From the IMG/VR virus record IMGVR_UViG_3300008261_000005: a DNA stretch of 64,000 nt. The stretch is one strand, 5' to 3'. This document shows positions 52,051 to 53,111 of this stretch, piece by piece; the first letter of the stretch is position 1; the number at the start of each line of letters is the position of its first letter. Position numbers and translations under genes: made by a program. The stretch comes from a virus. Below the pieces are notes generated by a model, which saw only the letters and a program-made list of their open reading frames with translations, was not told the DNA's origin and did no database searches.

Positions 52051-52284
52051 TTACATTAACGGCAATCCGCTGTTCTTGGTCAATTCAATATTTTCTTTGA
52101 TAATTTCGTTCATAATCAAACGATCTTCTCGAGTAAGACTATATAACATTTCACTTACTGAAACCCCGCCACGCATAAACCAGCTAATTCGATAAATTTC
52201 GTCCTTTATATCATGGACATATCTATCATGACTCTTGAGAAAATCTTCTAGCTCAGAGTCCGGGATATAAATTAGCTTCTGGCG
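52051..52284 (-). CDS. Start-less 77-codon ORF (gp51-like position), reachable by -1 frameshift from the gp26-like gene
   Basis: Reads RQKLIYIPDSELEDFLKSHDRYVHDIKDEIYRISWFMRGGVSVSEMLYSLTREDRLIMNEIIKENIELTKNSGLPLM*. Not in the ORF track; begins directly after T_TTT_TTC. Confidence 0.7.
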   Translation of the reverse strand, partial: RQKLIYIPDSELEDFLKSHDRYVHDIKDEIYRISWFMRGGVSVSEMLYSLTREDRLIMNEIIKENIELTKNSGLPLM

Positions 52285-53111
52285 AAAAAATTTGCTTGAT
52301 CCAATGTTACTTCAACGTCAGTTTCGTGACTACAAGCAGAACATGTTACATGTTGCTTGGGCATATTCCACATTTCCTTGTTTCTCTCAAGTTTTTCTTT
52401 GATTGCTTTGAAGAATTTACGGTCACTGTTTTGCAACCATTCAGCAATAGTATCACCCTCAGTGACAGTTTCACCACCAACTTGTATATTATCAATACTG
52501 ATTAAAAATAATTCTACTTGCATTTCGCTAATACGTTTGTATATAGAATCGTTTACTTCTTGTGTTTTAGCTTCATCTTCAGCAGCTTCTGCCTTACTCA
52601 ATTGATACAGCATTTTTTGTAATTTAAAGTTTTCCATATTAAACGTTGTAACTTCTGCATAAGATAACGGTCTAATAGTAATAGTTAAATCATCAATTTG
52701 AATCTTACCATCAAAATTAACACTACTATAGTAGTCAAGTATTCGTTGTAAGTCAACTACAAATTCATTCTCAGCTTTACAAGCTGGACAATTATGTGTT
52801 AATTCCATTTCTCCACCGTAAGTTGCAATCCTAATACCCACTAACAGTGCATCTACATCTGTACTGGGAATTACAGTAGCATCAGGAATGTAAGGACAGC
52901 AACTTTCAATAACTTTGGTAGTTGCCTCTCCGTTGAACAGGGCATCGGGAGTTTTCATTATGATCTCATCCATGCCAGTCATTCCAAAGATTGGAACATT
53001 ATTATAATCTCCTAAAAGTGAACCTGGTGGATAGAACAGTCCCTTGCTGGGCAGTGCCATGTAAATTTTAGGTTGTCTAAAATACTTTTGTAAAGGGTTA
53101 TTAGCTGTCAT
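52272..53111 (-). CDS. Baseplate hub assembly/tail chaperone, T4 gp26-like; start revised to 53111
   Basis: NPLQKYFRQPKIY..LPS.G, MT..DE...K, LL..IR.A.YG, CPAC and C..C zinc motifs, C-terminal NFF. Confidence 0.75.
   Translation of the reverse strand: MTANNPLQKYFRQPKIYMALPSKGLFYPPGSLLGDYNNVPIFGMTGMDEIIMKTPDALFNGEATTKVIESCCPYIPDATVIPSTDVDALLVGIRIATYGGEMELTHNCPACKAENEFVVDLQRILDYYSSVNFDGKIQIDDLTITIRPLSYAEVTTFNMENFKLQKMLYQLSKAEAAEDEAKTQEVNDSIYKRISEMQVELFLISIDNIQVGGETVTEGDTIAEWLQNSDRKFFKAIKEKLERNKEMWNMPKQHVTCSACSHETDVEVTLDQANFFARS

Follow-up and report, generated by a model that had tools for sequence, protein, structure and literature searches.

A conserved slippery heptamer in the gp26-like baseplate hub gene of jumbo phages and cyanophages predicts a short protein and a frameshifted long form

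The gp26-like baseplate hub assembly gene on a 64,000-nucleotide stretch of DNA from an uncultured giant phage related to T4 (hereafter the window; IMG/VR virus record IMGVR_UViG_3300008261_000005) very probably gives rise to two proteins, a gp26-like short form of 262 amino acids (aa) and a gp51-like long form of 336 aa, by programmed -1 ribosomal frameshifting on the slippery heptamer T_TTT_TTC. The source record of the window measures 132 kb and has a CheckV completeness estimate of 38%. A preliminary description of this DNA, made from its letters, had proposed that such genes yield a short form and a frameshifted long form, and comparison with relatives lends strong support to that proposal: the heptamer is conserved, the -1 frame is conserved as protein, and in-frame fusions are found at the predicted junction. 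The 262-aa protein matched the Pfam family PF12322 (T4_baseplate, the gp26/gp51 family) with an E value of 3.3e-18 and a score of 66.6 bits, the curated gathering cut-off being 24.5, and the match spans positions 39-219 of the 219 in the profile. In PHROGs it matched phrog_150 ('baseplate hub') with an E value of 2e-17. Homologues of the protein align with it from residue 1.

The gene lies on the minus strand and its 3' end reads GCA AAT TTT TTC GCC AGA AGC TAA. The heptamer stands here in the X_XXY_YYZ register, with TTT as the P-site codon, TTC as the A-site codon and three sense codons left before the zero-frame stop (coordinates of all features are given in Table 1). The -1 frame begins CGC CAG AAG. 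It is closed upstream by a TGA (52314-52312) nine codons ahead of the slip point, and its first ATG, GTG or TTG is codon 37 (52176). The TAA that ends it abuts the stop of a convergent plus-strand open reading frame (ORF) ending at 52050, and the predicted fold of the extension it encodes is a helix-loop-helix tail bearing a W-[YF]-M-R-G-G motif. The preliminary description had placed the heptamer at 52290-52284, three codons before the stop, and this proved exact to the base; its account of a -1 frame of 77 sense codons that fills the gap to the convergent gene, has a TGA upstream and contains no ATG until codon 37 was equally borne out.

Relatives were collected by scanning IMG/VR with the gp26-like protein, which gave 80 loci at 96% to 37% identity, and 64 distinct related ORFs were compared. 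All 64 carry T_TTT_TTC in the same X_XXY_YYZ register; in every IMG/VR locus that extends to the 3' end the heptamer is followed by G and stands 1 to 4 codons before the stop. When GenBank phages were searched by tblastn, the window gene was found to belong to the family present in RaK2-like and related jumbo phages, and the 77-aa peptide was matched over its full length immediately after the genes called 'baseplate hub' in Agrobacterium phage Atu_ph07 and Sinorhizobium phage Phosso. A blastn search of GenBank phages with the window locus gave no match. The same heptamer with its following G, again in register, was observed in seven cultured jumbo phages (RaK2, GAP32, 121Q, PA5oct, SCTP-2, Atu_ph07 and Phosso), while an eighth, Xoo-sp13, has T_TTT_TTT instead. 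T_TTT_TTC is also present in three T4-like cyanophages, S-PM2, P-SSM2 and Syn9. The gp26 gene of P-SSM2 contains, 14 codons ahead of its stop, another heptamer in register, A_AAA_AAG (L098:2145-2151), which is without counterpart in Syn9 and S-PM2 and is probably incidental.

The spelling of the site is fixed in a way that the protein is not. The codon ahead of the T-run is AAT in 35 of the 64 distinct ORFs, AGT in 22, ACT in 5 and CAT in 2, and the cultured jumbo phages add CGT, GAT and GCT, so that the amino acid varies and the third base is always T. The Phe pair is TTT-TTC in every one of the 64; elsewhere in these genes Phe is encoded by TTT in 81% of cases and by TTC in 19%, and two-fold degenerate codons ending in a pyrimidine end in T in 67%. 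Three codons ahead of the heptamer stands an invariant Asp, written GAT in 47 ORFs and GAC in 17, a split which indicates that synonymous drift has had time to act. Given x-Phe-Phe, the chance of finding T_TTT_TTC is about 0.10 per independent lineage. Judged from this comparison, the conservation of the heptamer is far beyond chance, and it is conservation at the nucleotide level and not merely of the protein.

After the slip point, the -1 frame runs for 76-77 codons in every complete locus of the jumbo clade, and the -1 ORF measures 60-79 codons across the named cultured jumbo phages and the cyanophages. Its first codon encodes an invariant Arg, followed by x-[RKS]-L. Alignment of 41 extension sequences revealed a mean column identity of 64%, with R1, L4, K27, W35, M37, R38, G39 and R55 invariant. 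The zero-frame tail over the same bases is 1, 3 or 4 codons long (5 in RaK2) and variable in sequence. Over the first 24 codons of the -1 frame, column entropy came to 1.22 at the first codon position, 0.81 at the second and 1.55 at the third, a periodicity of the coding kind. In about half of the distinct loci, and so in the window, no ATG, GTG or TTG precedes the conserved Met37. The preliminary description had suggested looking in orthologous loci for a conserved heptamer and for coding signal ahead of the first Met of the -1 frame; both were found, and homology in that frame starts at the Arg codon directly after the slip site, not at the methionine of MRGG. When searched alone against Pfam and PHROGs, the extension gave nothing useful and one weak match, to phrog_30021; the extension of RaK2 and GAP32 falls in phrog_18291, a family of unknown function. 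We also noticed a protein of 1435 aa (P0087) to which the extension profile matches in five separate stretches (E 2e-12), a pattern that may reflect either a helical module present in repeats or an artefact of composition.

The extension profile was searched against 1.84 billion cluster representatives, and 330 proteins were retrieved at E <= 0.001. About 20 of the best 150 cluster representatives, 319-351 aa in length, contain the PF12322 body and the extension in one frame, and in-frame fusions were also observed in loci L090-L092. The junction reads x-F-R-x-[KR]-L, with body and extension meeting between F and R. At the DNA level, as seen in three IMG/VR loci, it is CAA TTT AGA or CAA TTT CGT; since there is no T-run at these junctions, the fusions are not homopolymer sequencing errors. 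Three contigs with the fused form hold two tandem PF12322 genes, namely a short paralogue of 336 or 322 aa, which stops shortly after …GS[NS]F and lacks the extension, and the fused long gene directly after it. In L105:1232-3260 and L107:1264-3223 the tandem short paralogue upstream of the fused gene has an extra N-terminal stretch of about 45 aa; the two-gene arrangement of these loci parallels T4 genes 26 and 51 but appears to have a separate origin.

Gene number follows the presence of the heptamer. A single PF12322 gene was found in nine complete heptamer genomes, those of RaK2, GAP32, PA5oct, Atu_ph07, the three cyanophages and two window-clade relatives (100%-complete, at 400 and 365 kb), and two PF12322 genes were found in T4 and in the three fused-form contigs. 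The pattern is either a slip site with one gene, or no slip site with two genes, one short and one long. In a quick maximum-likelihood tree of the body, which is unrooted, has long branches and was obtained with a short search, a branch with 98% support in the Shimodaira-Hasegawa-like approximate likelihood-ratio test parts the two-gene lineages from each other: the T4 pair groups with the cyanophage forms, and the tandem pairs lie on the jumbo-phage side. As a lead, this suggests that the two-gene states are independent duplications.

In the mechanism that we propose, most ribosomes would read through T_TTT_TTC and stop three codons on, which would give the short form. A fraction would slip back by one base while the two Phe-tRNAs occupy UUU and UUC, and both tRNAs would re-pair to UUU; the slipped ribosomes would then read CGC CAG AAG and continue, for 77 more codons in all, to produce the long form with its helical C-terminal tail. 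The two forms would be the counterparts of T4 gp26 (short) and T4 gp51 (long), with one gene and a slip replacing two paralogous genes. We infer that the slip is ribosomal, and likewise its efficiency and a role of the tail in hub or tape-measure assembly.

An identical product, …N-F-F-R…, would arise if RNA polymerase added one U on the run of six T and some of the mRNAs encoded the fused 336-aa protein. The invariant T before the Phe codons, which lengthens the homopolymer from five to six, also speaks for such transcriptional slippage. For RNA polymerase of bacteria to slip efficiently, however, a run of six T is short, and a seventh T, which the commoner Phe codon would provide as TTT TTT, was seen in none of the 64 ORFs, although this choice is also forced by the Arg codon of the -1 frame. 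The site is always in the exact X_XXY_YYZ register, and in a distal clade of relatives a stem 6 nt downstream shows compensatory changes, as is the case for ribosomal stimulators; taken together, these points make slippage by the polymerase improbable. It is highly improbable that a separate small gene is translated here instead, comprising the 77-codon frame or just the final 41 codons that begin at Met37, with the T-run merely encoding Phe-Phe; its translation would begin by coupling or re-initiation where gp26 stops, or at a non-canonical start codon. In Atu_ph07, Phosso and loci L012, L013 and L053 an ATG does overlap the stop (ATGA), and Phosso is annotated in this way; at this place gene callers, as well as GenBank records, report short ORFs of 41-75 aa, and Phe-Phe is conserved as protein, T4 gp26 also ending …EFFELL. 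Yet the loci that lack a start for 36 codons are conserved as protein from codon 1, and the zero-frame stop stands at a varying distance from the conserved start of the -1 frame. Conservation of Phe-Phe would leave unexplained both the T at the wobble position of the codon ahead of the pair and the invariable order TTT-TTC, which is TTC TTT in T4, and a gene of its own would not account for natural fusions that join exactly between F and R.

A broken gene or an assembly error would imply that the locus is truly one fused ORF, interrupted by a homopolymer sequencing error or by a recent inactivating mutation. Sequencing often produces spurious frame breaks at T-runs, and relatives fused in frame do exist, but 64 distinct sequences, drawn from many samples, share this break with its run of exactly six T, and so do the finished genomes of cultured, viable phages. 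Moreover, the fused relatives have no T-run at the junction, and the fused-form contigs examined hold a second, short paralogue, so that we regard this explanation as extremely improbable.

Several observations weigh against the proposed pair of a short form and a slipped, gp51-like long form. The C and the G that follow the run of T are constrained together by Phe in frame 0 and by Arg (CGN) in frame -1; this dual coding, which assumes that reading of the -1 frame starts from that C, keeps them from counting as independent evidence on the slip mechanism. In Atu_ph07, Phosso and L012 there is an ATG at codon 2 of the -1 frame, overlapping the stop, and in these three the extension could also be made alone through translational coupling; the heptamer is kept there all the same. 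No conserved stimulatory structure was found downstream of the heptamer in the window and its clade, and no Shine-Dalgarno-like stimulator is evident upstream. Finally, comparison of the window-type extension with the tail of T4 gp51 was not significant (hhalign E 0.14), and for the RaK2-type extension the match to the gp51 tail was weak and local (hhalign E 3e-4 to 3e-3, probability 11-42%), covering the M-P-x-x-E-R-x-x-x-x-K region.

Slip sites of the tandem type often, though not always, have a stimulatory RNA structure 5-9 nt downstream. With regard to the RNA around the site, the one hairpin listed for the window in Table 1 is probably not a stimulator. The distal clade (L047-L081) has an 11-bp stem starting 6 nt after the heptamer, in which 9-11 of the 11 positions are paired and compensatory changes from A-U to G-C are found. 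The arms of this stem, GCCTAATTGG… with …CTAATTAGGC, are located 14-61 nt after the heptamer (alignment A2, columns 14-24 with 51-61), and the stem does not form in the window and its nearest relatives, 4 of the 11 pairs being present in the window. Across all 52 sequences the pairing was 73%, compared with 22-53% in a control in which the 3' partner columns were slid by 1 to 3 positions. The arms also encode conserved residues, and part of the stem conservation therefore reflects the protein. A consensus RNA fold of all 52 downstream segments gave no structure, and the stimulator seems to differ between clades.

Leiman et al. (2010, PMC3004832, Table 2) list T4 gp26 and gp51 as chaperones of baseplate hub assembly whose mechanism is unknown. 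The body of the window gene belongs to the same Pfam family as both, and is about 50 aa longer than its T4 counterpart. T4 gp26, a protein of 208 aa, contains no slippery heptamer in its gene, where Phe-Phe is spelled TTC TTT; like it, the short form of the window ends just after the conserved Phe-Phe. T4 gp51 (249 aa) consists of PF12322 and a tail of 48 aa, and the predicted long form of the window similarly combines the PF12322 body with a helical C-terminal tail, of 77 aa in this case (259 + 77 aa). The T4 pair is encoded by two divergent paralogous genes, whereas the window has one gene and a predicted slip. The preliminary description had set the frameshift in a T4-like phage context; this scope reaches the cyanophages, which carry the heptamer, but not T4 itself, which has two genes and no heptamer.

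The -1 ORFs of the cyanophages match phrog_634 ('baseplate hub assembly catalyst') at about E 1e-28, and those of two of the three, P-SSM2 and S-PM2, also match the gp51-specific part of phrog_150 (positions 237-281); by these profile matches the cyanophage extension is demonstrably the gp51 tail. No member of the 41-sequence alignment of window-type extensions matches phrog_150 or phrog_634. When fused forms or the window-type extension were compared by hhalign with T4 gp51, gp26 or an alignment of gp51, nothing but the N-terminal body aligned, and the tail did not. In an AlphaFold2 model of a natural fused form the extension was folded (predicted local distance difference test score, pLDDT, 91.2; predicted template modelling score, pTM, 0.87), and a model of a T4-like gp51 reached a pLDDT of 91.6. 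Both models present the same order of elements, which is a last beta hairpin, a short junction helix, a long helix, a short helix and a final helix, the long helix comprising 28 residues in the fused form and 14 in gp51. Fold matches of a fused relative in BFVD were T4-like baseplate hub or assembly proteins. It is likely that the window-type and gp51 tails are homologous.

Table 1. Features of the slip locus and its surroundings in the window, and annotation loci for the extension in relatives (nt, nucleotides; CDS, coding sequence).
Feature	Position	Strand	Remarks
Zero-frame CDS, short form, gp26-like baseplate hub assembly protein, 262 aa	52272..53060	-	ATG 53060, TAA 52274-52272; PF12322, phrog_150
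Slippery heptamer T_TTT_TTC, X_XXY_YYZ register, codons 258-259 (Phe-Phe) of the short form	52284..52290	-	direct reading
Zero-frame tail after the heptamer, Ala-Arg-Ser-stop	52272..52283	-	variable in relatives
-1 frame extension, 77 sense codons and TAA (52053-52051)	52051..52284	-	begins with the C of the heptamer, which is read twice
Predicted long form, 336 aa, by -1 slip	52051..53060	-	residues 1-259 in frame 0 and 77 extension residues
Weak local hairpin, 23 nt after the heptamer	52230..52260	-	not conserved; fold z-score -1.45 (101 nt), -0.7 (60 nt)
Divergent neighbour, 817 aa, candidate tail tape measure or virion protein	53169..55622	+	
gp20-like portal gene, after the 817-aa neighbour	55625-57352		
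Extension, annotation locus	L001:3109-3231		
Extension, annotation locus	L083:1480-1845		
Extension, annotation locus	L086:1510-1734		

The 817-aa neighbour had no match in Pfam or PHROGs, and no BLASTP match either to T4 gp29 or to the first 195 residues of the PA5oct neighbour. In RaK2 the gene that occupies this place is annotated as tape-measure-like, and GAP32, 121Q and PA5oct list theirs as a virion structural protein; ESM Atlas feature matches at 0.91, which are a lead only, point to tape-measure families. The preliminary description had noted an adjacent, divergent tape-measure-like gene; the divergent neighbour stands, while its identity as a tape measure is a weak lead drawn from position, from the annotations of the orthologous neighbours and from these language-model matches.

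According to the review by Atkins et al. (2016, PMC5009743), long-tailed phages 'except T4' share the -1 frameshift of tail assembly chaperone genes (lambda G-T) as a conserved feature. As in lambda gpG/gpGT, a tail-assembly gene of the window has an X_XXY_YYZ heptamer a few codons ahead of its stop, and the predicted products are a major, short form and a minor form extended at its C-terminus. Conservation of the signal in spite of low similarity between the proteins is shared with lambda-type frameshifts, and the gene adjoins a candidate tape-measure gene. In the lambda type, both forms bind the tape measure and the extension binds the tube protein. Unlike lambda G/GT, it belongs to a different protein family, and it is divergent from the candidate tape measure instead of lying between tube and tape-measure genes, co-oriented with the latter and immediately upstream of it; the portal gene follows the candidate. 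No tail-assembly-chaperone family was found for the gp26-like body in Pfam or PHROGs. The model of the fused form retrieved nothing from the PDB with Foldseek at E <= 0.001, and a wide search with VIA-align returned only generic helix-loop-helix matches (Z <= 5.6). Of the lambda G/GT-type logic put forward in the preliminary description, the short and extended forms are thus retained as an analogous logic, and chaperone kinship was found neither by sequence nor by fold; the comparison is an analogy of logic, not a case of membership.

With about as much to be said for it as against it, the -1 slip could be the ancestral way of making the hub/tape-measure assembly pair in the T4 superfamily, by which we mean here the cyanophages and the RaK2-like, Atu_ph07-like and PA5oct-like giants, and T4-type phages and at least one uncultured lineage could later have duplicated the gene independently (gp26 + gp51). 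If this is true, gp26/gp51 would be the functional counterpart of lambda G/GT, and the 'except T4' exception to frameshifted tail chaperones in long-tailed phages would close (PMC5009743); the frameshift proposed here would largely remove that exception. What T4 gp26 and gp51 do in hub assembly has been uncertain for decades (PMC3004832). Here they appear as a short/long pair that elsewhere comes from one gene, and this suggests that gp26 and gp51 share a partner and that their ratio matters. The family would be a clean natural example of three interchangeable solutions, namely a frameshift, an in-frame fusion with a duplicate, and two diverged paralogues.

We found no report of a frameshift in gp26-type genes in the open-access literature, and a report in a subscription journal is possible. 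The join is annotated in no GenBank jumbo-phage record that we inspected, and the gene is mis-annotated in every one of these records, the extension being either missing or listed as a hypothetical ORF of 41-77 aa. In Atu_ph07 the last 40 codons only are annotated, in RaK2 and PA5oct none, and in Phosso, GAP32, 121Q, Xoo-sp13 and SCTP-2 the extension is called as short hypothetical ORFs. As a result, a conserved predicted protein of 336 aa is unlisted in some complete genomes.

Two further observations were made in the course of the analysis. Just upstream of the tandem baseplate-hub genes of L105, a large ORF, of which 368 aa are seen, runs off the end of the locus (L105:1-1104, minus strand) and resembles, as judged by eye alone, a TnpB/OrfB-type transposon nuclease. 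The window protein itself carries a four-Cys site of the zinc-ribbon-like kind, made up of two CxxC pairs that are far apart in the sequence. The cysteines concerned (C94, C97, C240 and C243 in the numbering of alignment A3) are invariant in the fused relatives and a similar arrangement is present in T4-like gp51, which suggests a conserved zinc site in the gp26/gp51 chaperone family.

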